Assembly (NCBI GenBank): GCA_043801855.1
Contig: JAZDLQ010000019.1
Coordinates: 384-64,383 of the forward strand
Source of the DNA: an archaeon
GTDB lineage: Archaea; Nanobdellota; Nanobdellia; Woesearchaeales; GW2011-AR15
Reading direction: 5' to 3'
Length of the DNA: 64,000 bases
The notes under the pieces were generated by a model. That model was not told the origin of the DNA. It made no database searches and saw only the letters and a list, made by a program, of their open reading frames with translations. This document shows positions 19,534-61,108 of the stretch, piece by piece (position 1 is the stretch's first letter; each line of letters opens with the position of its first letter). Made by a program: the position numbers and the translations under genes.

Positions 19534-19548
19534 ATATGGGTGTAAAAA

Positions 19549-19677
19549 ATGTCATGGCAATGTAAAGCATGCGGAAATTGGAATTCAGACTATCTGAGCG
19601 AGTGCAATAATTGCGGAAAAGACTCGTATCAGAACACTAAAAAACGTAAATATGAAGAGATTGGGTGGTTTGGGTGA
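19549..19677 (+). CDS. 42-aa RanBP2-type zinc-finger micro-protein (candidate)
   Basis: MSWQCKACGNWNSDYLSECNNCGK fits W-x-C-x2-C-x3-N-x6-C-x2-C exactly. Below the ORF-track length cutoff. Overlaps the start of the next ORF by 26 nt. Confidence 0.35.
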   Translation: MSWQCKACGNWNSDYLSECNNCGKDSYQNTKKRKYEEIGWFG

Positions 19678-20893: not shown

Positions 20894-20899
20894 AATTAA

Positions 20900-20932
20900 G
20901 ATATATTTAGCCTTATTTTGCCTAAATATATC
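20900..20932 (+). terminator. Perfect 11-bp inverted repeat (GATATATTTAG / CTAAATATATC) with an 11-nt loop, just after the operon's last stop
   Basis: Arms at 20900-20910 and 20922-20932, read directly. Could be a terminator hairpin or a protein-binding or origin site. Confidence 0.35.
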
Positions 20933-21033
20933 AAATTACGCTTAAAACAATGAAATTAAAGTATAATTTTACTAATGAAAGTAAACATAAGTAAAAATTA
21001 CTTAGGATAAGTTATACTTTATTATATAATAAA

Positions 21034-34903: not shown

Positions 34904-37900
34904 ATGTCACAAACATCCCTATTTGAGTTTTCAAATAAAAGTCTTTTACCCCAAATTATACAAGAAAGTGAACAGGAGATTATTAAAGAAGTAAAGCAAG
35001 AAAGGAAGATTCTAAGAATTGAGCCATCAGGCAAAACATACACTCAGCTGAATACAGAAATAAAATTATCTATTCATAATGAGACATGGCACAAAGACGA
35101 CCTGATAAAATATTATGAGGGGCTAGGCATTGAAATCAAGAGCGAGAACGGCATTCTTGGCCTCCATAATGCCAGGGAGAAGAATCTAGGGCAGTTCTTT
35201 ACTCCATTGTGGGCTTCTAAGCTTATTGTAGAACTACTCAGTATCCCTTGTAATGCCACTGTCCTTGACAATTCAATGGGCTCAGGCAGGTTAGCCTGGC
35301 ATCTTCCAAATAAAAAGCTCTTTACAGGTATTGAATATGAAGCGCAGGCTTATGAGGTTGCTAAGAGAGTTTATCCGGATTCATGCATCATACAAGACAA
35401 TCTAGTGAATCATGTTGCTGACAACCGCTTTGATTATGTCCTTATTAACCCCCCTTTCTCACTCAATTTAAAGTCCCTGCATGGCAACCTTATCCATATT
35501 TCTTATGGTGGAGGGGTTCTCAGCCAGGTTGCAGCCATGGAGATTGGTTTGAGGGCTGTGAAGGACAGGGGCTATTTGGCAGCCATCCTTCCTGAAAATG
35601 TCTGGAAATTGGAGTCAACAAGAGTTTTGCACAGGTGGATAAAGGAGAACAGCCAAGAAATCGCCAGGATAAGGCTCCCTAAATCGACATTTATTGGCAC
35701 AGAGTGGAGAACAACACTTTTCATTTTCCATAAAACCAGTTGGAATTCGGACTCAACTGTTGAACCCTTTACTGATGAGCTTAGTAGCGAGCAGGACACC
35801 CCTTTGGTAATAGGGCGTTTTCAACAAACAGTATTTAATAGGGATGTAATAGACTATTCAGTGTCAAGAAACAGCCGTGAGCCAGTTATTCTGGAAAAAT
35901 TGAGTAAGGCAGAGGAAGCAATCCAGAGTATCAATAAAAGAAAGCTGTCATGGAACAGCGAAAACCCGAGAGTTCTGGTGACATCTGTGAAAAACAGGCT
36001 GCACTTCATGCCAAACAATGCCCTTGCTGCAATAAAGATGGAAAATATAAAGGCAAATTTTCAGGTAGAGTACGATTATAGCCTGCGCGACTATGCTGAT
36101 ACCTTAAAGAAGTCACTGGTGCTCGATAAGGTTTGGATTGGAGAGAAACATATCCATGAGCTGGAGATCTTCACTTATTTTGAAAAATACGGCCTTGATT
36201 ATGAAATCTCGCCTGTTTTAGTGAACTGGCTGAAGAAGAAAAAAAGGTTTTACAACAGGGAGAGCCTGGCTTTTGAGCAATGGATCAAGCCCACAGAGGA
36301 AAGCGACTGGGAGTGCCGCTTTGATGAGGATGGGATAAAAACCATTCTAGGCTTATACAACCACAGGCAAAGAATATTCAGGAGATGCTGCAAAGAGTTT
36401 CCTCATCTGAATGTACTCTATGACTTCCAGAAAGACGACCTAATCAGGCTTTCGTTAAAGAAGTCTGCAATAATTGCCTGGCAGCAGGGCCTTGGCAAGA
36501 CCAAACTTGGCATTGCATTGGCTATACTAAAAGATTGCAAGAAAAATCTCTTTATTGTTCCCTCTCACTTAAAGGCAACATGGGTGAAGGAGTTTAAGAA
36601 TTTTGGAATCAATGCTCATATCATAGAGGAAAAAGCAGATATTAGCCAGCTTTCCATGTTTAATCTTATCACATTCAATGCCTTGAAGAAAAAAGTTGAT
36701 TCTCGAAAAACAAAATTCAGGACTGATAAGAGAAGCGGGAAAGCTGTTGATAAGGCTAAGACTTTTGCAGACATTCTTAGAAAGAAATTCAAATTTGTTA
36801 TTGTTGATGAAGCCCATTATCTCTCAAATAAGAGCACAAGCCAGACCAAGGCAGTCTCAAAAATGAAACCCCGCTATTGGTACCTTATGACTGGAACACC
36901 AATAGGCAACACTGTGAAAAATATCTACTCGCTGCTGGATATCGGATGGAAGGCAGGAAGCCCATTTTTTCCTTACAACACAAAGCAGTTCAGGGAGGAA
37001 TTTGTGACAGTTGAATGGGTTACGCCTGAGTTTGATGACACCCTCTCAAAAGGCAGGACAGCACAGCAGATGGCAGATGTAAAAAATGTGGAGGTTTTTG
37101 TTGACTTGATGAAGGCAAAATGGCTTAGAAGGGTAAAGGCAGAGCCTGAAGTGCAGAGGTGCATAGCAATACCAAAACCTCACATAGTTGATGTTCAGTG
37201 CAAGCCAGAACAGGAGCAGCTCATCCATTACAAGAAGCATCTTGAGGAATTTGCAGTCATATTCAAGAGATACATGCATCCTGAAGAAGATAAAGAACAC
37301 AAGGTTGACCAGTCAATTGTCCTTGCCATGATCCAGAACCTGCAGTTTTGCTCTATTATACCCCAGCATCCAAAGGTAAATCCTGATGAAGATTTTACAT
37401 ATAAAGGAGATAAGACTACCACACAAAAGAAGATATTGGAGCTTATCAAGGCGCATTACGCCGAAGGGAGAAAGATAATCCTCTTCACCCAGCGCCCGGA
37501 TTTTTGTGATTTATTGGGTGATTGGCTCAAGAAGGAAAATATTGAGAGTGTTGTGTTCACAGGAAAGATCAATATTGATAAAAGGAACAAGAGACTGGAT
37601 GATTTCAAGTATAATGGTATTAATGTCATGCTAGCTTCAATCAATGTGACTGACACAGGCCTGAACATACCCCAGGCAAATATTGCCATTATTGCAGAAG
37701 CTGACTGGAAATGGAGCAAGATTGACCAAGCTTACTCACGGATCTTAAGGCCCCAGACAAAAGAAAGCCCGACTGTATACTGCATACACACAAACGGCAC
37801 CATTGACAATTACCTATGGCAGCATGCCTACAGGAAGAAAGACGCGATAGATGAGGCCTTAGAGGGTAGGGAGGACATTAAAAAGGAAAAATGGGTGCAC

Positions 37901-37951
37901 TGGAAAGACTTTATTGTGGAAATGCTTGAGCAGGAAGGGCTCTGGCCATAA
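34904..37951 (+). CDS. N6-adenine DNA methyltransferase fused to an SNF2-family helicase
   Basis: MTase motifs VLDNSMGSGRL and LINPPFSL. Helicase motifs WQQGLGKTKLG (I), VIVDEAHYLSN (II), LMTGTPIGN (III), TDTGLNIPQANIAII (V) and QAYSRILRPQT (VI). Confidence 0.8.
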   Translation: MSQTSLFEFSNKSLLPQIIQESEQEIIKEVKQERKILRIEPSGKTYTQLNTEIKLSIHNETWHKDDLIKYYEGLGIEIKSENGILGLHNAREKNLGQFFTPLWASKLIVELLSIPCNATVLDNSMGSGRLAWHLPNKKLFTGIEYEAQAYEVAKRVYPDSCIIQDNLVNHVADNRFDYVLINPPFSLNLKSLHGNLIHISYGGGVLSQVAAMEIGLRAVKDRGYLAAILPENVWKLESTRVLHRWIKENSQEIARIRLPKSTFIGTEWRTTLFIFHKTSWNSDSTVEPFTDELSSEQDTPLVIGRFQQTVFNRDVIDYSVSRNSREPVILEKLSKAEEAIQSINKRKLSWNSENPRVLVTSVKNRLHFMPNNALAAIKMENIKANFQVEYDYSLRDYADTLKKSLVLDKVWIGEKHIHELEIFTYFEKYGLDYEISPVLVNWLKKKKRFYNRESLAFEQWIKPTEESDWECRFDEDGIKTILGLYNHRQRIFRRCCKEFPHLNVLYDFQKDDLIRLSLKKSAIIAWQQGLGKTKLGIALAILKDCKKNLFIVPSHLKATWVKEFKNFGINAHIIEEKADISQLSMFNLITFNALKKKVDSRKTKFRTDKRSGKAVDKAKTFADILRKKFKFVIVDEAHYLSNKSTSQTKAVSKMKPRYWYLMTGTPIGNTVKNIYSLLDIGWKAGSPFFPYNTKQFREEFVTVEWVTPEFDDTLSKGRTAQQMADVKNVEVFVDLMKAKWLRRVKAEPEVQRCIAIPKPHIVDVQCKPEQEQLIHYKKHLEEFAVIFKRYMHPEEDKEHKVDQSIVLAMIQNLQFCSIIPQHPKVNPDEDFTYKGDKTTTQKKILELIKAHYAEGRKIILFTQRPDFCDLLGDWLKKENIESVVFTGKINIDKRNKRLDDFKYNGINVMLASINVTDTGLNIPQANIAIIAEADWKWSKIDQAYSRILRPQTKESPTVYCIHTNGTIDNYLWQHAYRKKDAIDEALEGREDIKKEKWVHWKDFIVEMLEQEGLWP

Positions 37952-40746: not shown

Positions 40747-41673
40747 TTATACTAATTCTACTTTGTCTCCATCATGAAGCTTGTAATCGAGACCAACTCT
40801 TTGACCATCATAAAAAGCATGCTCACTGAATAATTTCGCGCCTGAAAATTTTCCTTTATTTCTTCTGTCCAAGCTTAATGCAAAGTCACCAACCGATAAA
40901 CTTTCAGAAGTGGAAAATATCATAGGTTTTCCTTCAACTTGTCCGTTTCTATAACTATATATTCTTTGAATTCCTAATAAAGAATATATTACATTTTCAA
41001 GAGCATTAATATTTCCAATATTTACAACAGGTACATTCAAATTATTTAATATTGACCATGCTGCAACAAAGCCGGGCTTTTCAATAATTTCTTCCTTTGC
41101 TTTTTGTTTATGTGTGTTAGTTCTCCTTGATTCACCTACTATAATCAACATATAGTTCTCCAATTGTGAAATAGCGGAATAGGCCGTTTCTGCATTGGTT
41201 GCTGTAACACATAAAACATCAGCATTCCTAATAAAAATGTATTTAGCACTATCTTCTTCTCCTTGGTAAATAGGAGGTATCTCTATTACCTGAATCGGAA
41301 CATCCCTGCAAATATACATACCTATTCCAGGTTTAAACGTTGTATATGGTTGAGGTGATATTTTCGGATGAGATTGAGTTAATAATTCAAGTAATGAGCT
41401 TTTACCAGTATTAGTTTCTCCAACAATAACAATTTGCCTATCATATCTAATACCATCATACAATCCATTTGGTGCGCCCTTTCCTTTTGACGCTTGCTGC
41501 TGGACCTTTAAAGATGCTAATTCTTCCTTGAATCTAGTTCTTGTTGTTTTGGCTTCAATTCCTTTTGGGTTTAATGCAACCAATTGTTCTAAGAGCGTAA
41601 TCTTTTCTGCCTGAGTTCCTGCACCTTCTAATTTTTTTCTTAATAATTGAAACTCAACATCAGGATTTACCAT
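40747..41673 (-). CDS. DRG/Obg-class GTPase-like protein with a C-terminal TGS domain and a degenerate G3 motif
   Basis: G1 IVIVGETNTGKSSL and G2 YTTFKPG. G3 reads IQVIEIPPI instead of DxPG. TGS-like YDGQRVGLDYKLHDGDKVELV. Confidence 0.6.
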   Translation of the reverse strand: MVNPDVEFQLLRKKLEGAGTQAEKITLLEQLVALNPKGIEAKTTRTRFKEELASLKVQQQASKGKGAPNGLYDGIRYDRQIVIVGETNTGKSSLLELLTQSHPKISPQPYTTFKPGIGMYICRDVPIQVIEIPPIYQGEEDSAKYIFIRNADVLCVTATNAETAYSAISQLENYMLIIVGESRRTNTHKQKAKEEIIEKPGFVAAWSILNNLNVPVVNIGNINALENVIYSLLGIQRIYSYRNGQVEGKPMIFSTSESLSVGDFALSLDRRNKGKFSGAKLFSEHAFYDGQRVGLDYKLHDGDKVELV

Positions 41674-41689
41674 TTTTAACCTTTTATAA

Positions 41690-42586
41690 TTATTGTTGTC
41701 TCGACAAGCTTGACATAAACTCCATTAGGAGATTTGTCAGATGCAGACCCGTAATTTCATACTTTTCTAATGTTGGATTGTACTCTGTGAAGTCAGCTCC
41801 AATTACATGTGTTTGCAGAGCAATTTTTTCAAGCAACAATCTTGCCATCCTAAAATTGGCTCCATCTGGTTCTGGAACTCCAACTGCAGGCGCTATTGAT
41901 GGATCAAGAAAATCCATATCAAATGAAACATATGAAAACTGGCCTGAAATAATAATACCATCTAAAGAATTGAGCCCATTTTCTCTTATTTTGTCTAGTG
42001 TAAGTATTGTATTTCCATCGCTAAGTGAATCCTCAAGTCCAGGTCCTGTATTCAAGTTGCCATGCAATCCAATATGTACAATTCTGTCTACATATTTCAA
42101 TCCACGTACTGCCCGCATGACAGAACCATGAGGAAAACCTGCGTCATAGTTCAAGTAATCCCCATGTGCATCAAATTGATAAACTGTTACAGGAGTACTT
42201 AATTCAAGCCCCTTTAAAGCATGAATAGTAATTCCGTGATCCCCTCCAACAATAATTGGAATTCCATTTTTTTGTACTATTGTACTAATTATCTTAGGAA
42301 ACCCGTGATCCATATCAACAAAACCATTAGCGTCACCACAATCCACAATATTGCAGTCATGAAGTATATATCCTCTAGTTGGATTAAAAACCATCAATGG
42401 TTTTGCAGGTCCAACGCCATTTGCATATCTTTGTGAAATAGACCTAATTGAATTTGGCGCTTTGTCCAATCCCTGGAATTCATAACTTGTATTATATCCT
42501 GCACCTATGTAACACAACTGCCCGGGTTGAATATCATTTGGTTCAACATATTCCTGATTTAAAAATGTCTCTTTTGATCGTATCAT
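41690..42586 (-). CDS. Ureohydrolase (agmatinase/arginase family)
   Basis: GGDHGIT, QFDAHGD, SFDMDFLDP and ADFTEYNP are the manganese-ligand motifs of the family. Confidence 0.8.
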   Translation of the reverse strand: MIRSKETFLNQEYVEPNDIQPGQLCYIGAGYNTSYEFQGLDKAPNSIRSISQRYANGVGPAKPLMVFNPTRGYILHDCNIVDCGDANGFVDMDHGFPKIISTIVQKNGIPIIVGGDHGITIHALKGLELSTPVTVYQFDAHGDYLNYDAGFPHGSVMRAVRGLKYVDRIVHIGLHGNLNTGPGLEDSLSDGNTILTLDKIRENGLNSLDGIIISGQFSYVSFDMDFLDPSIAPAVGVPEPDGANFRMARLLLEKIALQTHVIGADFTEYNPTLEKYEITGLHLTNLLMEFMSSLSRQQ

Positions 42587-42620
42587 GGTATCACCGTATT
42601 ATTACAAAATAATTTTTTAA

Positions 42621-43739
42621 TCATCCCTTTCTGCCTGCAGTACCTATCAATACCACATTTTGTCCTTTTTGTATTTCCTCTGCTTTAATTGCAGCAGCAA
42701 AAACACTGCAAGAAGAAAATTCTAAACGTGGTAAATCTTGTTGATCATAAAATGATTCTATCTCTTCATCAGTCACAGAGACAGGAACCCCGCCTGTTTT
42801 TTTTAATAGGTTAATTATTTTTAAATAATTAAAACATGTATCTGACGCAATAGCCTCAGCTTGTGATTCTGCCATAGTCTCAAGAACCACAACTTTATCC
42901 TCAATTCCTTTTCTGAAACCATATGCTATTGGATCTGCACCTTCAATCTGGACAGCCATTATTCTAGGCAAAACACTGATTGCTCCACATTCAAACAAAT
43001 CTTTAAATCCATTGTACATACCAACTATATTACCCCCGCTGCCAACAGGCACAATTATCCAATCAGGCACACCACCACTAAATTGTTGAAAAATTTCATA
43101 AGCTGTCGTCTTCATCCCTTCCAGATAGGGTAAATTAGTTGCAGGAAAGCCATTATATACATCAGGATGACTTCTGCAAAACCTGAAAAAATGCTCATAA
43201 CTCTCTATCAGATCTTTATCAAACTGTATCTGTGAGTGTTGCTTAATTAACTCGATTTTGCTAGCAGGTGTGCCTTCTGGAATAAAAATCATGTTTTGAA
43301 TACCTGCCCTGGATGCGTAATATCCCAATGAAATGGCAGCATTTCCTGTTGAAGGAATCGCAATGGTTTTATACCCTTGTCTTAAAGCATCAGATACCAA
43401 TAATGCCATCCCTCTGTCTTTGAAGCTTCTAGTTGGATTACAGCTTTCGTCTTTAATAAAAAAATTGGCATCTCCTTCAATTGTTTCTAACCTATATAAA
43501 GGAGTTGAACCTTCAGTATAGCACACTGATGCATCCGCTAAAAATGCTAAATGATTGCCATATCTTGCTATACCTGTTTTTGAAGTATCATATAGTAAAC
43601 TAGAAGGTCTTTCTGAATAAACAGGTGTCCATATATTTAATGGCACCCCACCAATTTCAAGTTCCGGATGTTCATGATTATTTTGAAGCGGCGATTTAAT
43701 TCCGCATATATCGCATGATAGATAATCAATAATTGTCAT
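42621..43739 (-). CDS. Threonine synthase-like fold-type II PLP enzyme
   Basis: FIKDESCNPTRSFKDRGMA (PLP lysine motif), STGNAA and VGSGGN. Confidence 0.75.
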   Translation of the reverse strand: MTIIDYLSCDICGIKSPLQNNHEHPELEIGGVPLNIWTPVYSERPSSLLYDTSKTGIARYGNHLAFLADASVCYTEGSTPLYRLETIEGDANFFIKDESCNPTRSFKDRGMALLVSDALRQGYKTIAIPSTGNAAISLGYYASRAGIQNMIFIPEGTPASKIELIKQHSQIQFDKDLIESYEHFFRFCRSHPDVYNGFPATNLPYLEGMKTTAYEIFQQFSGGVPDWIIVPVGSGGNIVGMYNGFKDLFECGAISVLPRIMAVQIEGADPIAYGFRKGIEDKVVVLETMAESQAEAIASDTCFNYLKIINLLKKTGGVPVSVTDEEIESFYDQQDLPRLEFSSCSVFAAAIKAEEIQKGQNVVLIGTAGRKG

Positions 43740-44947
43740 TTTGTCATGTACTGCAATGTGTCAATAATTCTTCTGGGTATTGTTCTGGAATCTGTTACTT
43801 GCATAGAATCCTGCCATATTGGATAGCAGGCAGGACATATAGGATGTGAATACAATACAGTAGGGTTATACGTTCTATTAAACTCCTTTATTGCTTCAAT
43901 TACACCAGATGTGCATGATGAACAGTTACCCGAAGTCATATGCGGGAAAAGCTCATTACGTTCAACTCCAGGAGCAACGCCCTGACTTCCACTTAACACC
44001 TGTTCATCAAAATAACCGCCAAGCCTAAGATCAAGCTGCTTTCCTTGTTCAGTGCCTCCATATACCCCTTTTACTACTTCAATTACACTCCAAAGCCAAG
44101 GAACCCTGTATAAACCTATATTGTAAAGCATATCAGTTAAAGAATGTCTTTGCAAAGATGTTGGTTCAACAGAAACAGCATCTGAATCATTTTGAAGTGC
44201 AAAGAGAGCGGTTTCAACAGCGTCTGTTATCGCTTCCTTTTCTGTAAGAAATGGTGGCTTTTGGTTAACATACGTTAATGCTCTACAGCCATTTTCATGC
44301 AAAATCTGAATAGCCCGAGTATAAACTGTAAGATCAGGCATATTTTTATGATGGCATAATTCTCTAATATCTTGTCTTGATGATTCAAGCCCTATGCCAA
44401 CTTCAATAATTCCATCATATTGTCCTCTTATATTTGCTAATGATTCTGGAGTAATGTATTCAGCTCGTGATTCAATTATTACTTTTTTAATTCCTGGAAA
44501 ACACTGTATTGAACGAAATATCCCTCTTGCTGCCGATTTAGGTATTTCATTGGGGTTTAGAAAACTTCCCAGATTATATAAGCATAAAACGGGAAACTTG
44601 TTTAAATCAAATTCACCAGTCACAGATGCCTCTAATGCTGATCCATTGGCAACGCTTTTCCATTGCTTCATATACTCTATTGCCCTAACAGGGTTTTCTG
44701 TTGTGCCATCATAATGAGCGCACATTGAACATCCTTTTTTTGCTTTATAATGTTCACACCCTGTAGAACGTAAAACAACCATTATCCTGTCAATCGTTTG
44801 ACCATCAAACCAAAATTTGTTAATTTCAATCTCTGCGGGTACATTTGGATTGAAATTTCGTACAGGGACATCTGATCTTATTGTTGTAAGTTTTCTTTCA
44901 AGAATTTCTAAAGCTAATCCATATTCTTCTGTCATCATTTTTATCAC
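43736..44947 (-). CDS. Radical SAM-like enzyme with noncanonical CX8CX2C cluster spacing (TIGR01210/RaSEA-like)
   Basis: RSTGCEHYKAKKGCSMCAHYDG, with extra C-terminal CSSC and CPAC pairs. 4-nt overlaps with both neighbouring genes. Confidence 0.55.
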   Translation of the reverse strand: MIKMMTEEYGLALEILERKLTTIRSDVPVRNFNPNVPAEIEINKFWFDGQTIDRIMVVLRSTGCEHYKAKKGCSMCAHYDGTTENPVRAIEYMKQWKSVANGSALEASVTGEFDLNKFPVLCLYNLGSFLNPNEIPKSAARGIFRSIQCFPGIKKVIIESRAEYITPESLANIRGQYDGIIEVGIGLESSRQDIRELCHHKNMPDLTVYTRAIQILHENGCRALTYVNQKPPFLTEKEAITDAVETALFALQNDSDAVSVEPTSLQRHSLTDMLYNIGLYRVPWLWSVIEVVKGVYGGTEQGKQLDLRLGGYFDEQVLSGSQGVAPGVERNELFPHMTSGNCSSCTSGVIEAIKEFNRTYNPTVLYSHPICPACYPIWQDSMQVTDSRTIPRRIIDTLQYMTK

Positions 44948-46302
44948 CTATTTGCGAAAGATAATACAGGGCGATATTTTGCGCCGTTGTTATATGGTAT
45001 TTCGTCAACAACATTAATAGTTACTGACATATCTTGAGGTAATAATTGGTATAAACTCTTACCCAATCTTTCCTTTTGTGAAGGAGATAGTCCATATAAA
45101 CCGGGTACAATATATACATTAATATTACCTTCTTGTTCCTGGACAAATTGATACCTTAAACCGTGCACAGGTATATCCAGTTCAAGATACCAGTTATATG
45201 CAAGATCCATAAAACAACTTGCAGGAACAGTCCTTCCATCGGTTGTTAATACAGAATCCATTAGCCTTCCTTCAGGAGAATTCATAACCCTGAAATTGCT
45301 ACCGCAACTACAATTGACAACACCTTCGATTGAAGCAAGGTCACCCTGAGAATATCTGATTATTGGTGTTGCTGTGTTTAACAAGTTCGTACCAATAACA
45401 AGTCCACGGTTTCCAGGTTCAAGTGGTTTTTTTGATTCAGTATCAACAATTTCTATGTAACATGCATCTTCTTCAAGATGGTATCTTCTTGATGGGCATT
45501 CAAGTGCAATCCGTGTTAATTCTTCACTTGAAAATTCGTCAAGGACAGGTATACCAAAAAAATCAGAATAACTTTTCCTTTCCATAGTGGTTGATTGTTC
45601 TGAATGTATAACGATGAGTTCGATTCCGAATGATTTTAGATCTGCATTTGCAGTGCATAGTTGCCTTAAATATGTAGGATAAATAGATAAAACTTTAGGT
45701 TTGGCTTGTGCTAAAACCTTTACTGCGTCATCAATTGGAGTTGTTGTTAGGAGAAATTGTGTTGGATACATCCCATCTACAGAAGACACCCACCATGGAC
45801 TTGTGTAAATAAAAAATGCTAAATCAGTTGGATCATAATTTCCGCCACTCTGCATATGGAACTGTCTTACTCCTTGTATTGTATCTAAATATACTGCATC
45901 AGGAGAAACAGCAAGAGTAACAAATCGGCCGGAAGAACCTGAACTCCGGGTAGTGAACTCCAAAGTATGTTTAGAACTAATTGTTTTTTTTGGAAACCCA
46001 TCAATTAATTCATCCTTGTAAAGTATTGGCAAAGATTCAAAATCTCCCCATGTCTTTATATCTCCTGGTATAAAACCAACTGCATGATATTTTTCTTGGT
46101 ATAGAGGGACTGTTTTATATGCAAAATCCACTAACTCGATTATTCTTTGTAATTGCCATGATTTAATGTCTTGAGGAGATAATCTCGAAAATGTTTTTAT
46201 TGATTTCCATTTTTCATCAAATAAAGCTCTTAATGTCTGATGGTCTCGTACGGACTCCATTCTTTTATTACTTGTCCCTAGACTAGAATAATCTATCATC
46301 AT
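44944..46302 (-). CDS. PaaK/coenzyme F390 synthetase-like adenylate-forming enzyme
   Basis: TTRSSGSSGRFVT (AMP-binding P-loop variant). Overall PaaK/CapK-like length, with an ...IRYSQGD... region. Confidence 0.65.
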   Translation of the reverse strand: MMIDYSSLGTSNKRMESVRDHQTLRALFDEKWKSIKTFSRLSPQDIKSWQLQRIIELVDFAYKTVPLYQEKYHAVGFIPGDIKTWGDFESLPILYKDELIDGFPKKTISSKHTLEFTTRSSGSSGRFVTLAVSPDAVYLDTIQGVRQFHMQSGGNYDPTDLAFFIYTSPWWVSSVDGMYPTQFLLTTTPIDDAVKVLAQAKPKVLSIYPTYLRQLCTANADLKSFGIELIVIHSEQSTTMERKSYSDFFGIPVLDEFSSEELTRIALECPSRRYHLEEDACYIEIVDTESKKPLEPGNRGLVIGTNLLNTATPIIRYSQGDLASIEGVVNCSCGSNFRVMNSPEGRLMDSVLTTDGRTVPASCFMDLAYNWYLELDIPVHGLRYQFVQEQEGNINVYIVPGLYGLSPSQKERLGKSLYQLLPQDMSVTINVVDEIPYNNGAKYRPVLSFANR

Positions 46303-46399
46303 TTCTCCCCTCTATATAAATAACAATGGAAAAAAGATGTATATTTAAATATAACTACTAACTAGTTAATATTGGTTGTTTGGAATTATAATATAAAAG

Positions 46400-47379
46400 A
46401 TGAATAAAGCACAATTAACAGGTGTTGTTTCAAGCATACCCAGTTACTATTTTTTTCCAAAAAAAAAATATTTGGCTTAGATAATACTGAATATGATCAT
46501 TTAGATAAACCCGAAAGAGAAAAATGCATAAGGACTCTGTTAGAACCAAAATATAGTATTGTAGCATCACGGGAGTTTTCTCCAGATTTACTATATCTTG
46601 CACATGCCCCTGATTATATTGAATTTGTTAGAGCACATAATAGATCTGGATTGGTATCAAAAGCTGATTGCCAAGGATATCTCCAGGATAGTGACTCATT
46701 TGTTTGGCTTGATGAAAACACATTTGATGCTGCCAAAAACTCTGTTGATACTGCTTTGACAGCAGCTACTTTAATATATAATAATCAAACAGACATTGCT
46801 TATGCCCTGTGCCGACCATCAGGTCATCACGCAGGTAAAAATAAGATGGGAGGATATTGCTATTTTAATAATACGGCAATAGCTTCATTATATTTAAGGA
46901 ATTTTGGATTCAATGTTGGGATAATTGATATTGACAGGCATGCAGGAAATGGCACACATGAAATCATTCTTGGACAGAATAAAATATATTTTGTTTCTTT
47001 ACACATAACAACAACATACCCTTGGAGATATTCGCACAATGATAGATATAATAATGATGAACAAAATGTAAAAATTTATCCCATAGATGAAAACGAATCA
47101 ACTGACAGTTATATTAAAAAGTACTATTCTGGACTTGAATTATTAGTTGGCAAAGGTGCTGAAGTACTTGTAATTTCTTTAGGCCTAGATACATCTATAC
47201 ATGATTTGCAAACATTGGCTGACACAGGAACTTTTGGTTTACAAACAAGTTATTACGAACGACTCGGAAAAATGGCAGCAAACCATAATAGAAAAGTCTT
47301 GGTTATTCAGGAAGGAGGGTACAATCTGGCACATTTATCAGAAAACTTAGGGGCATTTTTAACAGGTTTAACAATGTAG
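46400..47379 (+). pseudogene. Histone deacetylase/acetylpolyamine amidohydrolase-family gene interrupted by a frameshift at an A10 run
   Basis: RPSGHHAGKNKMGGYCYFNN, IDIDRHAGNGT, SLGLDT and QEGGYN. ATG 46400 is in a different frame and stops at TAG 46478. The domain frame has no ATG until TTG 46651. Confidence 0.6.
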
Positions 47380-47380
47380 T

Positions 47381-47794
47381 CTATTTAACTTGTCTTTCTC
47401 CAATTTCTTCAGAGAACCTTAATAGATAACCATCAGGATCTTGTACGAGAAATTCCTTATTTCCCAATAATGTATCCCCTTTTCTGTACCAGTTTTCTTT
47501 AGGTTTCAGAAAAAGAGGATACTTTTTGTTATTTAAGGAAATTAAAATTGGCTGGATGCTTTTTACATCAATTTGAAAATTTATACCCCTTCCATAAGGG
47601 TATTCAAGTGTGCCAGTATTCCAGTTATTGTTTACCTGTTCAATCATTATTTGACTGCCTTCAAAAGATAGAAAGGCAAATTTATTTTCTTTTCTCATAT
47701 ATTCGATGTTAAAACCCAATATTTCTGTATAAAAGGACAAGCTTTTTTCAAAATCTGATACACTTAATTCAGGGATAAGTTTGTTGAATTTCAT
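47381..47794 (-). CDS. Glyoxalase/bleomycin-resistance (VOC) family protein
   Basis: LSVSDFEKSLSFYTEILGFNIEY...FLSFEGSQIMIEQ...FLVQDPDGYLLRF. Confidence 0.7.
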   Translation of the reverse strand: MKFNKLIPELSVSDFEKSLSFYTEILGFNIEYMRKENKFAFLSFEGSQIMIEQVNNNWNTGTLEYPYGRGINFQIDVKSIQPILISLNNKKYPLFLKPKENWYRKGDTLLGNKEFLVQDPDGYLLRFSEEIGERQVK

Positions 47795-47962: not shown

Positions 47963-48406
47963 TTAACAGTGATAGTTTCTGATACATCCTCTCATGTCTT
48001 TCATTGTCTTCAATAATCTTTTCCTATTCTCATCAGTATATGGTACTACAAACGGCTCCCCTGTCGAATACTGCAGCAGGCCAAACCCTGGCTTTTCTTT
48101 ATAGTGCTCTTCCATTAGCAGGCAATAAGACATCAACTGCATTACATGGCTTAAATACGGCTCTTTAGGCCTTCTGGAGCTCTTGATCTCCATAGGGATG
48201 CGCTTGCCATCAATGACAAGTATCTTGTCCATCTTCCCTGCAAGCAGGTATTTTTGGGAATAGAAAGGCCTTTCGGTGATTATTGTGTGGTCGGAATATA
48301 TGGACCCTGATTTGAATATCAATGGATGGATTTCCTGCTTCTGCTGCAGAACCTTCAAAAGGATCCAGATAATTGCAAGGATTAGAAGAATTAGGACTAT
48401 GCTCAT
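47963..48406 (-). CDS. C-terminal half of a split Cas4-like PD-(D/E)XK nuclease, with an N-terminal TM helix
   Basis: TM IVLILLILAIIWILL, then AGKMDKILVIDGKRIPMEIKSS (D...ExK) and QLMSYCLL (QxxxY). ATG 48406 overlaps the upstream stop (ATGA). The ORF-track GTG is at 48415. Confidence 0.5.
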   Translation of the reverse strand: MSIVLILLILAIIWILLKVLQQKQEIHPLIFKSGSIYSDHTIITERPFYSQKYLLAGKMDKILVIDGKRIPMEIKSSRRPKEPYLSHVMQLMSYCLLMEEHYKEKPGFGLLQYSTGEPFVVPYTDENRKRLLKTMKDMRGCIRNYHC

Positions 48407-48663
48407 AACAGCCACCTTATGAATAAATACAGAAGTATCAGGACAATCACAGCTAGTACTATGTTTTTGCCAAATTCAAGGCCCCGTGCAGACTCGTACC
48501 TCTGCTGGTAATCCTCGTGGAATTTCTCTCCCTTAATCATCTGCTCTGTGACTGTGGTTCCTTCTGTCCGGGACTGCCACCAAAGCTTAGGATCATAAAC
48601 ATACTGGGCAATTTCGCTAGACCGGATTACAAGATTATCTTTTTGGATACCCATAACTGTCAT
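48403..48663 (-). CDS. N-terminal half of a split Cas4-like nuclease, with a C-terminal TM helix
   Basis: IRSSEIAQYVYDPKLWW resembles the Cas4 N-terminal helix, with Asp where the Fe-S Cys normally sits. GEKFHEDY follows. C-terminal TM IVLAVIVLILLYLFI. Confidence 0.45.
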   Translation of the reverse strand: MTVMGIQKDNLVIRSSEIAQYVYDPKLWWQSRTEGTTVTEQMIKGEKFHEDYQQRYESARGLEFGKNIVLAVIVLILLYLFIRWLL

Positions 48664-51132: not shown

Positions 51133-51161
51133 TTGAAACATCCTTGTTTTTCATGTTTCAA
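51133..51161 (-). terminator. Hairpin TTGAAACAT-N11-ATGTTTCAA overlapping the stop of the Cas4-like gene
   Basis: 9-bp arms at 51133-51141 and 51153-51161. Confidence 0.4.
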
Positions 51162-52117
51162 CTTTCAAATAAATCGCTTGCAAAAACCGAGTCACCGCCA
51201 TTTGGATAACATATTTTTTTATATTTGCAAACCTGGTTTCCTGCAAGGCATCGTGTTTCGTTTAAAGGATAATTTTCAATTGCTGCAATATTATTTACAG
51301 GATCAACAAGAAGTGATTTCATTGCAGAAATACCGTTTTTTATAATTGTTTTACAGGATTCAATATCTGCTTCGTTTACTATTCTTTCTTCTGGTTCAGA
51401 CATTCTATTTAGATTAAACAGAACAACTTTTATTTTGTCTAAAGGAAATTTCCATTTGTCAAGGCAATATAACGCATAAACGTTTAGCTGCAGCTTCTCT
51501 TTTTCTTCATCACTGTTATTACCTGTTTTCCAGTCATAAATATGAACTTCATCTGTTCTAAGCCTTGCAAAATCAATTTTTAAGTAAATCTGTGTTCCAT
51601 CAAGCATGAAAGACTGGGGCTTATCATCATCTATAAACCTGTATTCTGAGATTGGAATGGCTCTAACATGTGCATAAAAATCTGACTGTAAAAAATTCAG
51701 GATGCATCTTGTAGCCCTATCAAAAATTAATGCAATATCCCTTTCTTCAACTAAAAGATGGTACTCGTGGCACAATAGACTGCATGATTTTCGCTTAACT
51801 TTATATAACCCAGCTTCTGAACTTCGCATATCTGCCTTCATTTTATTGACCATTGATTCAACCAGTGCATCCGGGTTTATAGACATTTTAGATCTTGTTT
51901 TAATAAGGATTTGCCGTATCTGGTCGTGAATAACTTCTCCAACCCACATCTCCAGCGGTTTCATGTTCTTTAACATATCAATCTGCTTTACTTCTTCAGT
52001 TGCGCCTGATTCCCATGCACCCCAGAAGCCATACTTGTCATAATAGTATTTTCTCCTGCATTCATTAAACGCTTCCTGAGTTGATTTCGACCATGAAAAT
52101 GTGTTTGTAAAAACCAT
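51158..52117 (-). CDS. Cas4/RecB-like PD-(D/E)XK nuclease with a Cys cluster
   Basis: FNECRRKYYYDKY, LKIDFARLRTDEVHIYDWKTG, QLNVYALYCL and C-terminal CLAGNQVCKYKKIC. Confidence 0.65.
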   Translation of the reverse strand: MVFTNTFSWSKSTQEAFNECRRKYYYDKYGFWGAWESGATEEVKQIDMLKNMKPLEMWVGEVIHDQIRQILIKTRSKMSINPDALVESMVNKMKADMRSSEAGLYKVKRKSCSLLCHEYHLLVEERDIALIFDRATRCILNFLQSDFYAHVRAIPISEYRFIDDDKPQSFMLDGTQIYLKIDFARLRTDEVHIYDWKTGNNSDEEKEKLQLNVYALYCLDKWKFPLDKIKVVLFNLNRMSEPEERIVNEADIESCKTIIKNGISAMKSLLVDPVNNIAAIENYPLNETRCLAGNQVCKYKKICYPNGGDSVFASDLFES

Positions 52118-55381: not shown

Positions 55382-58300
55382 TCAAAGATTATTGGATGTG
55401 TCTATCCACCTATCAGATAGAACCTCAGCTTGTTCTAAAACTAAATCTGTGGCAATTTTTTCTTTATCAGGAGGATAACCATATTTCTTTAGTAATTTAC
55501 GAATTTCCACCCTTAATTTGGCCCTCACTGATTCTCGTATTTTCCAGTCAATAGAAGTATTTCTTTTTATATAATCAGTTAATTCCCTTGCAATCTTTTT
55601 TAAAACAAGTTCTCCTAAAATATTCTTTGCACTTTCATTATCTGCAAGCGCATCATAGAAAGCAACTTCTTCATCTGTAAGTCCCAGTTCATCTCCTCTT
55701 TTTTTTGCATCCCTGACTTCTTTTGCTAATTCAACAAGTTCTTTAATAACCTGTGCTGAATCAATACTTTTATTCTGATACTTTCGGATTGCCTCTTCAA
55801 GCATCTCAGAAAATTTCTTATTCTTGATTTTGTTCTCTTTAAATCTTACCTTGATTTCGTCATACAGAAGGTTTTTTAATGCTTCAAATGCAAGGTTTTT
55901 GTAAGGCATTGTCTTGAATTCATCCAAAAATCTGTCCGATAATATTGAAATCTCTGGCTTTTCAACTCCAAGTTCTCTATAAATATCAATTATTCCATGT
56001 GATTCTATAGCTTTGGAAACAAGTTGTTTTATTGCTGTATCAGTTAATGTTGTCCTTCGGGTTTCTTCAGTATCAGTTTTCTTGAAAGCGTTTGATATTG
56101 CTTGAAATAGAGCAGCTTCTTCTCTAATTTTCTGTGCTTCTTGTGTAGTTGCTGCAAGCGATAATGCACGGATTAAACCACTTGTGTTTTTAACAAATCT
56201 TTCTTTTCCTTTATCTTGCTTTAATATAAAATCCAACATCTCAGGTACTATTCTCATCTTTTCTTTAGATGAAGCATCAAAAAACTTTTTGTATGGGTAG
56301 TTATGAAGCATGCCCGTTATTATTTCATACTTTTCCATCATTAATGAGACAGCTACACTAATGTCATATGAAGGTTTACCTTCTCCACCACTTTGGGAAT
56401 AGACAGAAATTGCTTTCTTAAGTTCCTCTGCAATTCCTATGAAATCAACAACTAATCCCCCTGTTTTCTCTTTGTATACTCTATTTACTCTGGCAATTGC
56501 CTGCATTAAATTATGATGTCGTATTGGCTTATCCAGATACATTGTATTGAGAGATGGAACATCAAAACCTGTCAGCCACATATCTCTCACAATAGCAATT
56601 TTAAAATCAGAGGATGATTCTTTAAAGAGTTCTGCCAACTCCCTTCTCTTTTGTTTAGTTCTTATATGTTCCTGCCATTTATTGCCATCAGCAGCAGACC
56701 CAGTCATAATGACTTTTATCTTTCCTTTGTCATCTTCCTTATTATACCAATCAGGTCTTACCTTCTTAATTGCATCATGCAAATCAATACAGATTCGTCT
56801 ACTCATACAAACAATTAGAGCTTTACCATCAAGAACACTTTGCTTTAGTTCAAAATGTCTAACAATACTCTGAGCAATTGTTTCAATTCTTTTATCAGTT
56901 CCAACCAATGCTTCAATGGTGCTCCATTTTGATTTTAGATATTGTTTATTGTCCTGTTCTTCAAACTCTGTAACATCTTCAATATCTTCGTCAAGCTGTT
57001 TAAAGATATCTTCATTTTTGCCTAGTTTTACAAGTTTAGATTCATAGTATATTGGAACAACTCGTTTGTCTTCAATAGCAACGTGCATGTCGTAAATATC
57101 AATGTAAGTTCCAAAGATTGCCCTTGTGCTTTTGTCTGCCATATCAATAGGTGTTCCTGTGAATCCTAAGAATGAGGCATTTGGTAAGGCATCTCTTAAG
57201 TACTTGGCAAATCCATATCTTAGTTTTTGGTTTTTGTTAAACTTCCCCTTGAAACCATATTGAGTTCTATGCGCTTCATCTGCAACCACAATTACATTAT
57301 CCCTGTTTGAAAGAAGTTCAAACTCCGATTCCTCTTTGTCATTAAACTTCTGTATTGTTGTAAAGAATATTCCTCCAGAAGAAACTTTAAGAGATTTTTT
57401 TAACTCGGATTGTGTATTAATCTTTTTTGGCTCTTCCCTAAATATTTGACCATAGTTTGAGAATGTATTAAAAAGTTGGTCGTCAAGGTCATTCCTATCT
57501 GTTATAACAACAATTGAAGGATTCTTCATTTCAGGAGTTCTTGTAATTTTACCAACATAGAAAGCCATTGTTAAGGACTTTCCTGATCCCTGAGTATGCC
57601 AAACTACACCTATCTTCTTATCTCCTGCTAATGCTTTGATGGTTTTATCAATGGCTTTATTGGCAGCATGGTACTGATGGTATCCTGCAATTACTTTAAT
57701 TGCATCTTTTTTTGTTTGCTGCTCATAACCTATAAAATTTCTAATCAAATCTATTATAACATTCTTATTGCACATCCCCTTTAGAACAACTTCAAGCTGT
57801 GGAACACTTTTAGGTATTCTTTTTCTGCCATCTATTGTTCGCCAAGGCATAAACCATTCCCAAGAGGAAGTCAGAGTTCCTACTTTGGCATCCGTGCCAT
57901 CGGCAATTATGATAAACTCATTGTGTGTAAATAGAGCGGGAATTTCTGTTAAATATGTCTGTATTTGCTCATATGCTGACCTTACAGTAGCAGTTGCAGA
58001 AGCAGGGTTTTTTAGCTCAATAAGCCCTATTGGAAGACCATTAATAAACAAGACAACATCAGGCCTTCTGTTATGCTCATTTTCAATAATAGTGAATTGA
58101 TTTATGGCTGTAAAATCATTTTTTTCTGGCTTTTCAAAGTCAAATAGCTTGACAATAACGCCTTTGATTCTATCTTTCTCTCTTACTTCAACTTCAACAC
58201 CATTAACTAAGAAATTGTGGAACTTTTCATTGTTTGCAATAGTCTTATGGCTTGTTGTTCTTGTAATCTTTTTAATTGCCTCATCTAAGGCTTCTTTTGT

Positions 58301-58486
58301 CAATGTAGGATTAATCTCTTTGAGTGCTGATTCAAGTCTATCATTGAGGACAACATCGTCCCATTTAGCTCTTTTTGGCTGTTCAGAATCAGGCGCAATG
58401 TCTGGTCCATATACTATGTCATAACCAAGTTCATACAGTATCTCTAATACTGCATTTTCAATATCCTGCTCAACGATAAATGACAT
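55382..58486 (-). CDS. hsdR: Type I restriction enzyme R subunit
   Basis: 1034 aa. N-terminal EQDIENAVLEILYELGYD, motif I HTQGSGKSLTM, motif II VVADEAHRTQYG, plus TGTPI and QAIARVNR. Confidence 0.9.
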   Translation of the reverse strand: MSFIVEQDIENAVLEILYELGYDIVYGPDIAPDSEQPKRAKWDDVVLNDRLESALKEINPTLTKEALDEAIKKITRTTSHKTIANNEKFHNFLVNGVEVEVREKDRIKGVIVKLFDFEKPEKNDFTAINQFTIIENEHNRRPDVVLFINGLPIGLIELKNPASATATVRSAYEQIQTYLTEIPALFTHNEFIIIADGTDAKVGTLTSSWEWFMPWRTIDGRKRIPKSVPQLEVVLKGMCNKNVIIDLIRNFIGYEQQTKKDAIKVIAGYHQYHAANKAIDKTIKALAGDKKIGVVWHTQGSGKSLTMAFYVGKITRTPEMKNPSIVVITDRNDLDDQLFNTFSNYGQIFREEPKKINTQSELKKSLKVSSGGIFFTTIQKFNDKEESEFELLSNRDNVIVVADEAHRTQYGFKGKFNKNQKLRYGFAKYLRDALPNASFLGFTGTPIDMADKSTRAIFGTYIDIYDMHVAIEDKRVVPIYYESKLVKLGKNEDIFKQLDEDIEDVTEFEEQDNKQYLKSKWSTIEALVGTDKRIETIAQSIVRHFELKQSVLDGKALIVCMSRRICIDLHDAIKKVRPDWYNKEDDKGKIKVIMTGSAADGNKWQEHIRTKQKRRELAELFKESSSDFKIAIVRDMWLTGFDVPSLNTMYLDKPIRHHNLMQAIARVNRVYKEKTGGLVVDFIGIAEELKKAISVYSQSGGEGKPSYDISVAVSLMMEKYEIITGMLHNYPYKKFFDASSKEKMRIVPEMLDFILKQDKGKERFVKNTSGLIRALSLAATTQEAQKIREEAALFQAISNAFKKTDTEETRRTTLTDTAIKQLVSKAIESHGIIDIYRELGVEKPEISILSDRFLDEFKTMPYKNLAFEALKNLLYDEIKVRFKENKIKNKKFSEMLEEAIRKYQNKSIDSAQVIKELVELAKEVRDAKKRGDELGLTDEEVAFYDALADNESAKNILGELVLKKIARELTDYIKRNTSIDWKIRESVRAKLRVEIRKLLKKYGYPPDKEKIATDLVLEQAEVLSDRWIDTSNNL

Positions 58487-58488
58487 TT

Positions 58489-59109
58489 TTATTTCTCTTT
58501 AGGTTCTTCTAAATTATTTTTATCTAATACTTCATCCTCAAGTTTTCTTAATTTTTCTATTATACTTAATTTATCCAGTTCTGCATCTTGATTTGCAATA
58601 ATATAATCTGTCATATTAAGATTACTTATTTGACTTAAAATTATTGAATTAGCATCTGTATTTAATGGATTCCAAAGAACTACATCGCATTCAATACTAT
58701 AGGGTGAATTTGTCCCAAACGCCCAAGAAGTCATATTACTGCTCCCTATAATTGTAATAATATACTCTGAATTTTTTTTTAAGAAATATATTTTTGCATG
58801 CCATTTTTGTTTGGAAGTGAATGCAGTATAATTAACTGTCCCTACAATACTTTTCATAACACTAACAAAATTTAGATATTTATACATCCAAATTTTATTA
58901 TATACTCCTATTGTTGTTAATTTAATGTTATTTGCCTTAATATTGTTTGCGAAATTTCCTTGTTGGCTTAATTTGAACTTATTCCCTTCAGAGAAAAATC
59001 CTGAACAAATAGTAATATTTACATCTTTAAATGAAGTGATTGACTGTAAAATTATTTGTCTAAATATATTGGGAGATGCTTGTTTTCGTAAAATAAATAA
59101 TATTTTCAT
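58489..59109 (-). CDS. PLD-superfamily (single HKD-like motif) nuclease embedded between hsdS and hsdR
   Basis: WHAKIYFLKKNSEYIITIIGSSNMTSWAF has the HxK...GSxN pattern (the conserved Asp position is Lys). Abuts hsdS with no gap and lies 2 nt from hsdR. Confidence 0.6.
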   Translation of the reverse strand: MKILFILRKQASPNIFRQIILQSITSFKDVNITICSGFFSEGNKFKLSQQGNFANNIKANNIKLTTIGVYNKIWMYKYLNFVSVMKSIVGTVNYTAFTSKQKWHAKIYFLKKNSEYIITIIGSSNMTSWAFGTNSPYSIECDVVLWNPLNTDANSIILSQISNLNMTDYIIANQDAELDKLSIIEKLRKLEDEVLDKNNLEEPKEK

Positions 59110-60441: not shown

Positions 60442-61075
60442 CTGATTTAATTCTATTCATTAGTAAAGTTAGATTATGCTCATAAGATTTAATTGGTCCA
60501 AAATAATTGGAAAGATATGTTCTTGTCTCGGATTTTATTAACTCAGACTGATAATTAATCTTCAAATGATATAACATTGCCAAAACAACATCAACGGAAG
60601 TAACTTGTTCAGCTATCTTTTTTCCTCTTTTATCATGTGTTCTTTTTAAAATACCTATTACTAATAAGACTGAAAGCATAGCTAACCCACCAATAATTGT
60701 AACCCATTTTATAGTAGATGTAACACCAACTACGGCACTTGTTACTGTTGTTAATTTTGAAATAGTAGCCGATACTTGACCTTCTAATAAACCATTTGAT
60801 TGCGTCAAAGAAGTAATATCTGATAAGGAAGAAGCTAATAGTGTGTTAATTGTGTTTGAGAATAAAGTAACAGCACCCAAACTTATTGTAAGGATAATGT
60901 TAATTATTAACAGGTTTTCATTGCTTGACTGAAATTTATTCTGCAGATTCATCTCAAATGTCAAATGATACTCTTCTCTTTCGTGCTGAAAATACTCTAT
61001 TAAATTATCTATATAATTAGTATCAGTTTGACCTATTGTATTACTCTTTTTGTTTTTCTGTTTCTTTGTGTTCAT
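60410..61075 (-). CDS. Two-TM membrane protein of unknown function inside the type I R-M operon
   Basis: TM helices LLIINIILTISLGAVTLF and WVTIIGGLAMLSVLLVIGIL, separated by a Ser/Thr-rich loop. The 3' end overlaps hsdS by 32 nt. Confidence 0.5.
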   Translation of the reverse strand: MNTKKQKNKKSNTIGQTDTNYIDNLIEYFQHEREEYHLTFEMNLQNKFQSSNENLLIINIILTISLGAVTLFSNTINTLLASSLSDITSLTQSNGLLEGQVSATISKLTTVTSAVVGVTSTIKWVTIIGGLAMLSVLLVIGILKRTHDKRGKKIAEQVTSVDVVLAMLYHLKINYQSELIKSETRTYLSNYFGPIKSYEHNLTLLMNRIKSDESKNKTQTN

Positions 61076-61108
61076 GCATTTCTTCCTTATTTTTATTTAA
61101 ATATTGCC

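Follow-up and report, generated by a model that had tools for sequence, protein, structure and literature searches.

Arginine donates the guanidine unit in the biosynthesis of indolmycin, in which Ind3 and Ind6 (the counterpart of PluN2) couple dehydro-arginine to an acid with ATP and the oxazolinone ring is formed (PMC8246080). In the sinefungin pathway, an arginase strips guanidine from an arginine-derived intermediate (10.64898/2026.05.21.726688), and the radical S-adenosylmethionine (SAM) enzyme RaSEA, which works together with ArcS in tRNA modification, removes the lysine carrier from preQ0-lysine by a radical reaction that leaves a formamidine/amidine (PMC11298593). Here, we analysed a 64,000-nt stretch of an archaeal contig (JAZDLQ010000019.1, Woesearchaeales; the whole stretch is referred to as the window), in which genes for a PaaK-like ligase, a RaSEA-like radical SAM enzyme, a ThrC-like enzyme, an arginase-family ureohydrolase, a DRG-like nucleoside triphosphatase (NTPase) and a glyoxalase-fold protein are clustered at positions 40747-47794. 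On balance, this locus probably represents a minimal archaeal version of a horizontally transferred cluster for an arginine- or guanidine-derived translation inhibitor with self-protection. It is likely that the cluster is a secondary-metabolite cluster; the chances that the ribosome is the target of its product are about even, and the specific chemical steps proposed below, which are drawn from analogy, are tentative at best.

Organization of the gene cluster

An earlier note on this DNA had described five minus-strand genes between 40747 and 46302. We found all five open reading frames (ORFs) at exactly these positions, and the domain assignments made there hold for each of them in Pfam, NCBIfam and PDB searches. 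In the direction of transcription, they encode a PaaK/F390-like adenylate-forming ligase (44944-46302, 452 aa), a RaSEA-like (TIGR01210-like) radical SAM protein (43736-44947, 403 aa as called), a ThrC-like fold-type II pyridoxal 5'-phosphate (PLP) enzyme (42621-43739, 372 aa), an arginase-family ureohydrolase (41690-42586, 298 aa) and a short DRG/Rbg-like P-loop NTPase with a TGS domain (40747-41673, 308 aa); the window belongs to a metagenome-assembled archaeal genome, and NCBI locus tags of its genes have the form V1859_024xx. The ATGA overlap at 43736-43739 and the gaps of 34 and 16 nt are as described, whereas the 4-nt overlap at 44944-44947 needs a GTG start. Since a strong Shine-Dalgarno motif (AGGTGAT) precedes the ATG at 44938 of the radical SAM gene and NCBI annotates a product of 400 aa, the junction between ligase and radical SAM genes is probably stop, 5 nt, ATG. 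Even with this start the coupling of the two genes is tight, and given its recurrence across two domains of life their arrangement is far beyond chance.

The cluster extends past these five genes, up to a gene of the glyoxalase/bleomycin-resistance fold (47381-47794, minus strand, 137 aa; Pfam Glyoxalase and Ble-like_N). The earlier note had left this gene out of its set, but it belongs to the cluster, as related loci show (see below).

Conservation and distribution of the cluster

Fifty-three related loci were fetched, their ORFs were called and clustered, and the recurrent families were annotated; 42 of the loci were non-redundant. Close homologues of the radical SAM protein (49-69% identity) number in the hundreds; they come from metagenome-assembled genomes (MAGs) of Woesearchaeota, Methanosarcinales and Aenigmatarchaeota, from the candidate phyla radiation (CPR; Shapirobacteria and Microgenomates), from Bacilli and from many gut Clostridia. 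The presence of the cluster in DPANN and CPR organisms, and widely in gut Clostridia, is unusual.

The PaaK-like ligase gene is adjacent to the radical SAM gene in 40 of the 42 loci; ligase homologues share contigs with radical SAM homologues, and the identity gradients of the two proteins run parallel. Other recurrent families are ABC-F proteins (about 32 of 42 loci), the ThrC-like enzyme (28/42), the arginase-family enzyme (22/42), a class I/II aminotransferase whose best matches are GntC, VioD and beta-methylarginine aminotransferase (22/42), a LysA-like decarboxylase (20/42) and the glyoxalase-fold protein, whose gene lies directly upstream of the ligase gene in 16 of 42 loci (47-60% identity). 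In a second architecture, the ligase-radical SAM pair alone is retained of this main set, and it is accompanied by a variant radical SAM protein, an ATP-grasp ligase, a GNAT protein and an M20/ArgE-like deacylase, and in some loci by an amidinotransferase/arginine deiminase (ADI)-fold protein, a HAD hydrolase, a SPASM radical SAM protein and a MATE exporter. Archaeal versions have extra genes for Ddl-like ATP-grasp, Peptidase_C39-like and B12-radical SAM proteins. The tailoring sets are modular and both MATE and ABC exporters occur among related loci, features that together suggest a secondary-metabolite character. The view that the five genes form one set should therefore be modified: their co-conservation is strong, but what is conserved as a unit is the ligase-radical SAM core, to which tailoring modules are added interchangeably. 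When the window was searched by tblastn with all accessory families, aminotransferase, decarboxylase, ABC-F, ATP-grasp, C39-like and other accessory genes were found to be absent from the 64 kb.

Each protein can be clearly assigned to a superfamily, as would be expected if ordinary housekeeping genes (PaaK, RaSEA, ThrC, SpeB and DRG) had come to lie side by side by chance. However, the same neighbours recur in 40, 28 and 22 of the 42 loci and in two domains of life, all of the proteins fall below curated equivalog cut-offs, the agmatinase of a polyamine/hypusine operon in a woesearchaeal locus (L045) is only 24% identical to the ureohydrolase, and substrate-site positions of the ThrC-like enzyme are altered. 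Chance adjacency is hardly credible in the light of these data; co-conservation and cut-off scores effectively refute it. The earlier note had read the enzymes as a likely pathway unless they proved to be housekeeping orthologues that are not conserved together, and both the co-conservation and the sub-cut-off scores of all four enzymes support the pathway. It had not recognised the combination as a described one, and we likewise found no description in the literature searched or in family libraries.

The ligase and the radical SAM enzyme

The ligase has no Pfam match at E<0.001. Among NCBIfam models it scores 101 bits with the DVU_1553 family and 80-93 bits with PaaK models, whose cut-offs are 646-700 bits; PaaK is also matched in PDB (7e-15), and the adenylate-forming fold is all that the two have in common. 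An SSGSSG P-loop and the lysine of a C-terminal GAK motif can be read in the translation. By analogy, we propose that the ligase may couple a carboxylate to an amino or guanidino nitrogen at the expense of ATP. In two loci (L018 and L025), it is replaced by an LPG_synthase_C protein with the fold of aminoacyl-tRNA-dependent transferases (29 bits, borderline), which suggests that aminoacylation or amide formation takes place at the ligase step.

Such a replacement would also be in agreement with a scaffold-peptide pathway, like those of peptides that are made on the ribosome and modified after translation (RiPPs) or pearlins, in which an amino acid is put on a small carrier peptide, where the radical SAM and PLP enzymes modify it before a peptidase sets it free. 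Some archaeal loci indeed encode Ddl-like ATP-grasp ligases as well as a Peptidase_C39-like protein, and in the sinefungin cluster an arginase occurs together with ligases that depend on tRNA (10.64898/2026.05.21.726688). On the other hand, a search for ORFs of 20-75 aa in or beside 45 loci revealed nothing conserved beyond near-identical genomes, and the window has no C39-like gene, so that we consider a carrier peptide very unlikely.

The radical SAM protein is a clear homologue of RaSEA (NCBIfam TIGR01210, 176.1 bits, 1e-51), in line with the family likeness pointed out in the earlier note, yet it does not reach the equivalog cut-off of 212.15 bits. Its C64-x8-C73-x2-C76 motif and four additional C-terminal cysteines (C342/C345/C371/C374) are invariant in 20 homologues. 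In a Foldseek search with its AlphaFold2 (AF2) model (pLDDT 86.9), the best folds were the Elp3 radical SAM domain and queuine lyase, and the HydE barrel was also matched; these are generic radical SAM barrels that give no clue to the substrate, and when PDB sequences were searched with the profile of this protein, a weak match to queuine lyase was the only result. Among 1.84 billion representatives at 50% identity, the subfamily comprises one full-length representative (577 bits), while the next full-length protein scores 207 bits with 38% identity. This gap indicates that the subfamily is a discrete orthologous group, distinct from RaSEA proper.

The likeness to the ArcS-RaSEA system for archaeosine synthesis lies in the homology of the radical SAM enzymes, in the obligatory pairing with a partner by which the substrate is first loaded with a group, and in the amidine chemistry of RaSEA, which fits the guanidine/amidine enzymes around the present subfamily. 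In contrast to that system, the partner is a PaaK-like ligase in 40 of 42 loci and no recurrent neighbour is ArcS- or TGT-like, there is no PUA-domain context, the subfamily has an extra C-terminal four-cysteine motif, and it is mainly bacterial, whereas bacteria lack archaeosine. Nucleoside or deazapurine genes were found in none of the related loci. Thus, of the products that the earlier note had considered, a modified amino acid is favoured and a nucleoside is not. It is unusual that a RaSEA-like radical SAM enzyme is joined with a PaaK-like ligase to act, probably, on a small molecule.

A different role for this pair would be the chemical modification of a component of translation (tRNA, rRNA, a ribosomal protein or an elongation factor), with the ABC-F or DRG-like proteins as functional partners. 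The nearest named family of the radical SAM enzyme is the tRNA-modifying RaSEA, its closest folds include Elp3, and ribosome-associated NTPases are recurrent companions of the pair. Besides ArcS-RaSEA, a precedent is provided by EpmA and EpmB, in which ligase and radical SAM logic serves the beta-lysylation of elongation factor P (EF-P). However, no RNA-binding domain such as PUA or THUMP is present in the enzymes, and their patchy cross-domain distribution at 50-69% identity is typical of accessory genes. In addition, GNAT and M20 proteins, MATE and ABC exporters and interchangeable amino-acid tailoring enzymes are encoded in the loci, as is a homologue of the small-molecule enzyme PluN2. We therefore regard a modification of the translation machinery as unlikely.

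Besides the subfamily itself, we noticed distant RaSEA-like radical SAM proteins (33-40% identity to the query) that are not encoded in the window and are fused to TIR (P0204 and P0231) or SIR2 (P0235) domains, which suggests that this radical SAM superfamily includes defence-type members not yet described. Further fusions of distant RaSEA-like proteins involve a DDAH/amidinotransferase-like domain (P0163) and a GNAT domain (P0174).

The glyoxalase-fold protein and comparison with indolmycin biosynthesis

In PDB, the glyoxalase-fold protein matches 2rk9 (4e-27) and, over its full length (residues 1-133), N-demethylindolmycin synthase PluN2 (6p29, 3e-21). The position of a PluN2-homologous protein directly upstream of a PaaK-like ligase resembles indolmycin biosynthesis, in which the glyoxalase-fold Ind6/PluN2 is a gatekeeper, and in fuller clusters there is also a fold-type I PLP enzyme that matches the arginine-modifying GntC and VioD best. 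Ind3 itself is reportedly PaaK-like. The differences are considerable. Equivalents of Ind1, Ind2, Ind5 and Ind7 are missing from the loci, which contain a radical SAM enzyme, a ThrC-like enzyme and an arginase instead, and the hosts are anaerobic, so that the O2-dependent chemistry of Ind4, an arginine-modifying PLP enzyme, would not work there. Moreover, no recurrent neighbour family is a tRNA synthetase (a resistant tryptophanyl-tRNA synthetase is absent), and to judge from the resistance genes the target is the ribosome and not such a synthetase.

By analogy, the glyoxalase-fold protein could assist the ligase by steering cyclisation, or it could be an immunity protein that binds the product. 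One locus is of particular relevance here: at L049:1158-4925, the closest homologue of the DRG-like NTPase (62% identity) is followed by the closest homologue of the glyoxalase-fold protein (68%) and then by IstA and IstB of the IS21 type, which represents a mobile cassette of two genes or else a cluster cut short by an insertion sequence (IS). Because this pairing with the NTPase favours immunity and the homology to PluN2 favours catalysis, both roles are retained. A role purely in bleomycin-type immunity was considered as well, but in view of the match to PluN2 a function in biosynthesis is no less likely.

The ThrC-like enzyme and the ureohydrolase

The ThrC-like enzyme belongs to the Pfam PALP family (2e-52) but falls below every thrC cut-off (NF004170, 170 vs 421 bits; TIGR00260, 110 vs 167 bits). 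In an alignment of 26 family members, the PLP lysine K107 within NPTRSFKDRG is kept and an N-terminal CxxC...HxH motif is invariant. In threonine synthase of Thermus thermophilus, Thr88, Arg160 and the GNAGN loop reportedly form the substrate-phosphate site. Tyr is invariant among the 26 members in place of Arg160, Ala takes the position of Thr88 in the window protein and in the majority of members that have an STGN motif, and the GNAGN loop is altered to GSGGN or GSGMD. Judged from these residues and scores, the protein is not a canonical threonine synthase.

The ureohydrolase matches Pfam Arginase (5e-45) and is also below the relevant cut-offs, both for agmatinase (82-83 bits vs 174 and 302) and for arginase (76 vs 228 bits). 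The motifs of the binuclear Mn site (GGDHG, DAHGD and SFDMDFLDP) are present in the translation, as is TEYNP, and PDB matches include agmatinase (1e-19) and proclavaminate amidinohydrolase (3e-18). The agmatinase in L045 mentioned above, to which it is 24% identical, belongs to a woesearchaeal operon of PvlArgDC, agmatinase and deoxyhypusine synthase. Following the example of guanidino-unmasking ureohydrolases such as proclavaminate amidinohydrolase and SinR of sinefungin, which likewise have an arginase fold and reside inside a biosynthetic cluster, we propose that it may hydrolyse the guanidino group of a pathway intermediate, although it is orthologous to neither of them. The sinefungin cluster as a whole serves as an analogy only: it includes an arginase step, but its enzymes are different.

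Ribosome-associated NTPases as candidate self-protection factors

The DRG-like NTPase matches Pfam MMR_HSR1 and TGS (TGS 3.6e-5) and, in PDB, Rbg1/Rbg2 (6e-10). It belongs to a short family of about 18 clusters (301-341 aa), in which G1 is intact, the DxxG motif of G3 is changed to E(V/I)PP, and NKxD and the S5D2L insert are missing; the canonical archaeal DRGs that were aligned with it retain DxxG as well as NKxD. Alignment with Rbg1/Rbg2 and archaeal DRG extends over the G1 P-loop, the G2 threonine, the N-terminal helical region and the TGS domain at the C-terminus. The window protein is, however, some 60-80 residues shorter than these, without the S5D2L/MMR_HSR1_Xtn insert and NKxD, and its linkage to a biosynthetic cluster has no known parallel among DRG proteins.

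We examined eight genomic contexts of the short family, counting the near-identical L045 and L046 as one. The NTPase gene lies inside the cluster in four of them (the window, L008, L012 and L053, in three arrangements) and is tied to the cluster in six, while it is unlinked in L047 and L048. In L045 and L046, which represent a Woesearchaeota genome, an ORF of 248 aa overlaps the NTPase gene and shares 62% identity with residues 1-207 of the ligase (L045:7814-9462; L046:6520-8168). To judge from this similarity, the stub is apparently what is left of a decayed cluster in which the NTPase was retained.

ABC-F genes of the related loci are often wedged between biosynthetic genes. Eight copies from seven loci were scanned, and seven of them pass the NF000355 model for ribosomal protection-like ABC-F proteins (436-473 bits vs a cut-off of 380; L001, L003, L014, L024 with two copies, L031 and L040) and are below the EttA and Uup cut-offs; one of the L024 copies is OptrA-like (684 bits). 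In this the related loci resemble antibiotic producers with ABC-F self-resistance (TlrC/CarA/OleB/SrmB; compare the antibiotic-resistance (ARE) ABC-F proteins of the Vga/Lsa/OptrA type), but the window has no ABC-F gene and the ABC-F proteins of its relatives are below the cut-off of every named resistance subfamily. ABC-F proteins are reportedly essentially absent from archaea. Archaeal versions of the cluster, including that of the window, tend to carry the short DRG-like NTPase instead, and ABC-F is found in none of the loci that bear this NTPase. Given this mutual exclusion, the two types of NTPase appear to be equivalent, most simply in the protection of the producer's ribosomes. The place of the DRG-like protein in the five-gene set of the earlier note should be reconsidered: by analogy with ABC-F proteins, a ribosome-protecting immunity factor is more likely than a pathway enzyme. 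A degenerate DRG-like NTPase as a candidate ribosome-protection factor of archaea would be unusual.

Proposed pathway

In the proposed pathway, the ThrC-like enzyme would make an unusual amino acid. The ligase would adenylate a carboxylate, which would then be linked to a nitrogen atom in a partner of the arginine or lysine type, a coupling that the PluN2/Ind6-like glyoxalase-fold protein may steer as in the assembly of the indolmycin oxazolinone. The radical SAM enzyme would then cleave or rearrange a C-N linkage of the adduct in the manner of RaSEA; such a step would be an O2-free alternative to the O2-dependent dehydro-arginine route and would fit anaerobic hosts. The ureohydrolase would remove or unmask a guanidino group, as in clavulanate or sinefungin biosynthesis. 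The product would inhibit translation, and the DRG-like NTPase in archaea or ABC-F in bacteria would shield the ribosomes of the producer. The link to guanidine or amidine chemistry is suggested by the arginase-family, ADI/amidinotransferase-fold and GntC/VioD-like companions, by the DDAH-like fusion of a distant RaSEA-like protein and by the formamidine product of RaSEA.

Several observations weigh against a pathway for a ribosome inhibitor with self-protection. Every chemical step is an analogy, and the loci were all recovered from metagenome assemblies of uncultured organisms. The window version does not contain the exporter, aminotransferase and decarboxylase of fuller clusters, so that it may be partial or may make a different end product. 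With regard to protection, the DRG-like NTPase is found in only four cluster loci and two members of its family are unlinked, and it might be a plain DRG orthologue of these small-genome archaea. The ABC-F protein of L009 is below the NF000355 cut-off, and this model is broad, so that passing it does not prove antibiotic resistance. Finally, the cluster lies among restriction-modification and Cas4-like genes, which would fit a role in defence too.

A more far-reaching possibility, which is less likely than not, is that the ligase-radical SAM pair gives rise to a new class of ribosome-targeting natural products without O2, using an amino acid as sacrificial nitrogen or guanidine donor, that the cluster has spread across domains, and that the DRG-like NTPase is the first archaeal ribosome-protection factor, an analogue of ARE ABC-F. 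If this is true, a new antibiotic scaffold and new enzymology could be expected, namely a small-molecule use of the radical C-N chemistry of the RaSEA type. The producers would be DPANN and CPR organisms, which are usually thought to be almost devoid of secondary metabolism, as well as abundant gut Clostridia. A DRG-family protein would become a concrete candidate for ribosome protection in archaea and might shed light on the poorly understood role of DRG/Rbg GTPases. Since the cluster, to which OptrA-like ABC-F genes are attached, is found in many MAGs from human and animal guts, it may also be a natural reservoir and a selective driver of clinically relevant ABC-F resistance.

A candidate leader RNA in clostridial versions

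In 13 loci of gut Clostridia, we observed a conserved promoter (TTGACT-17-TATAAT) and, between it and the ligase gene downstream, a leader some 120 nt long (L019:4019-4138, L020:8452-8571, L023:8454-8574, L024:8482-8603, L026:8454-8573, L027:3265-3386, L028:8453-8574, L029:8452-8572, L030:8439-8562, L033:8415-8535, L035:7036-7151, L036:8454-8574 and L042:8325-8439). The leader is predicted to fold into a three-way junction with a P1 helix (GAUUAUC/GAUAGUC) and two hairpins, and 11 of the 14 predicted pairs show compensatory changes. It has no Rfam match. A covariance model of the leader found it only in these loci, including two outside the training set, and gave no match in the window, in type B loci or in archaeal loci. 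The leader is a candidate for a new cis-regulatory RNA, whose ligand could reveal the chemistry of the pathway. In the window itself, Rfam and tRNA scans gave nothing, and a scan for promoter and terminator consensus sequences was uninformative, as expected for an archaeon.

Neighbouring genes and the wider window

A divergent HDAC-type (acetylpolyamine-amidohydrolase-like) gene faces the operon (46400-47379, plus strand; Pfam Hist_deacetyl, 1.7e-43). This gene exists as the earlier note had stated, but it is frameshifted and its Pfam match spans only profile positions 68-296. The reading frame is split in a run of ten A (A10, approximately 46461-46470), the first 26 codons from 46400 being in another frame, and the addition of one A would give back a protein of about 326 aa; the gene is either a pseudogene or the result of an assembly error. 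No homologue was found in any of the 53 related loci, and it is a neighbour, not a conserved member of the cluster.

The window looks like a variable island with patches of differing G+C, in which three defence-like stretches can be distinguished. The first (34904-37951, plus strand) encodes a 1015-aa fusion of an N6-methylase and an SNF2 helicase, the second (51158-52117, minus strand) a PD-(D/E)XK nuclease that matches 'Aga_Cas4-like_Nuc' in PADLOC, and the third (55382-63844, minus strand) contains the R subunit of a type I restriction enzyme and adjacent genes. A Csa3/Cbp1-like helix-turn-helix (HTH) protein is encoded in the window as well.

This defence-island-like setting, together with the TIR and SIR2 domains, hallmarks of defence, that are fused to distant RaSEA-like proteins, raises the question of whether the cluster serves as a chemical defence against viruses, making a toxic or translation-blocking molecule upon infection while the NTPase shields or senses host ribosomes. 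Nevertheless, the fusion proteins are only 33-40% identical and stand outside the radical SAM subfamily, and the cluster proteins have no PADLOC match apart from trivial P-loop matches. The bacterial flanks consist of ordinary metabolic genes, the operon there having its own conserved promoter and leader, and a scan of viral contigs with the radical SAM profile revealed no relatives, hence no viral contig with the radical SAM gene. A role in antiviral defence thus seems rather improbable.

Other features of the window were noted. A Cas4-like nuclease (47963-48663, minus strand) is represented by two ORFs that overlap, one of 86 aa at 48403-48663 and one of 150 aa at 47963-48415, and Cas4 models match the second alone; this may be another frameshifted gene. 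The stretch at 36-40 kb has a G+C content of 41-43%, compared with approximately 33% in the rest of the window. Furthermore, a 12-kb block on the plus strand (10427-22461) comprises at least eight co-directional ORFs (311-717 aa) without any Pfam match, preceded by a 1601-aa protein whose sole match is a C-terminal DUF835; this block may be an integrated element or an as yet undescribed system.

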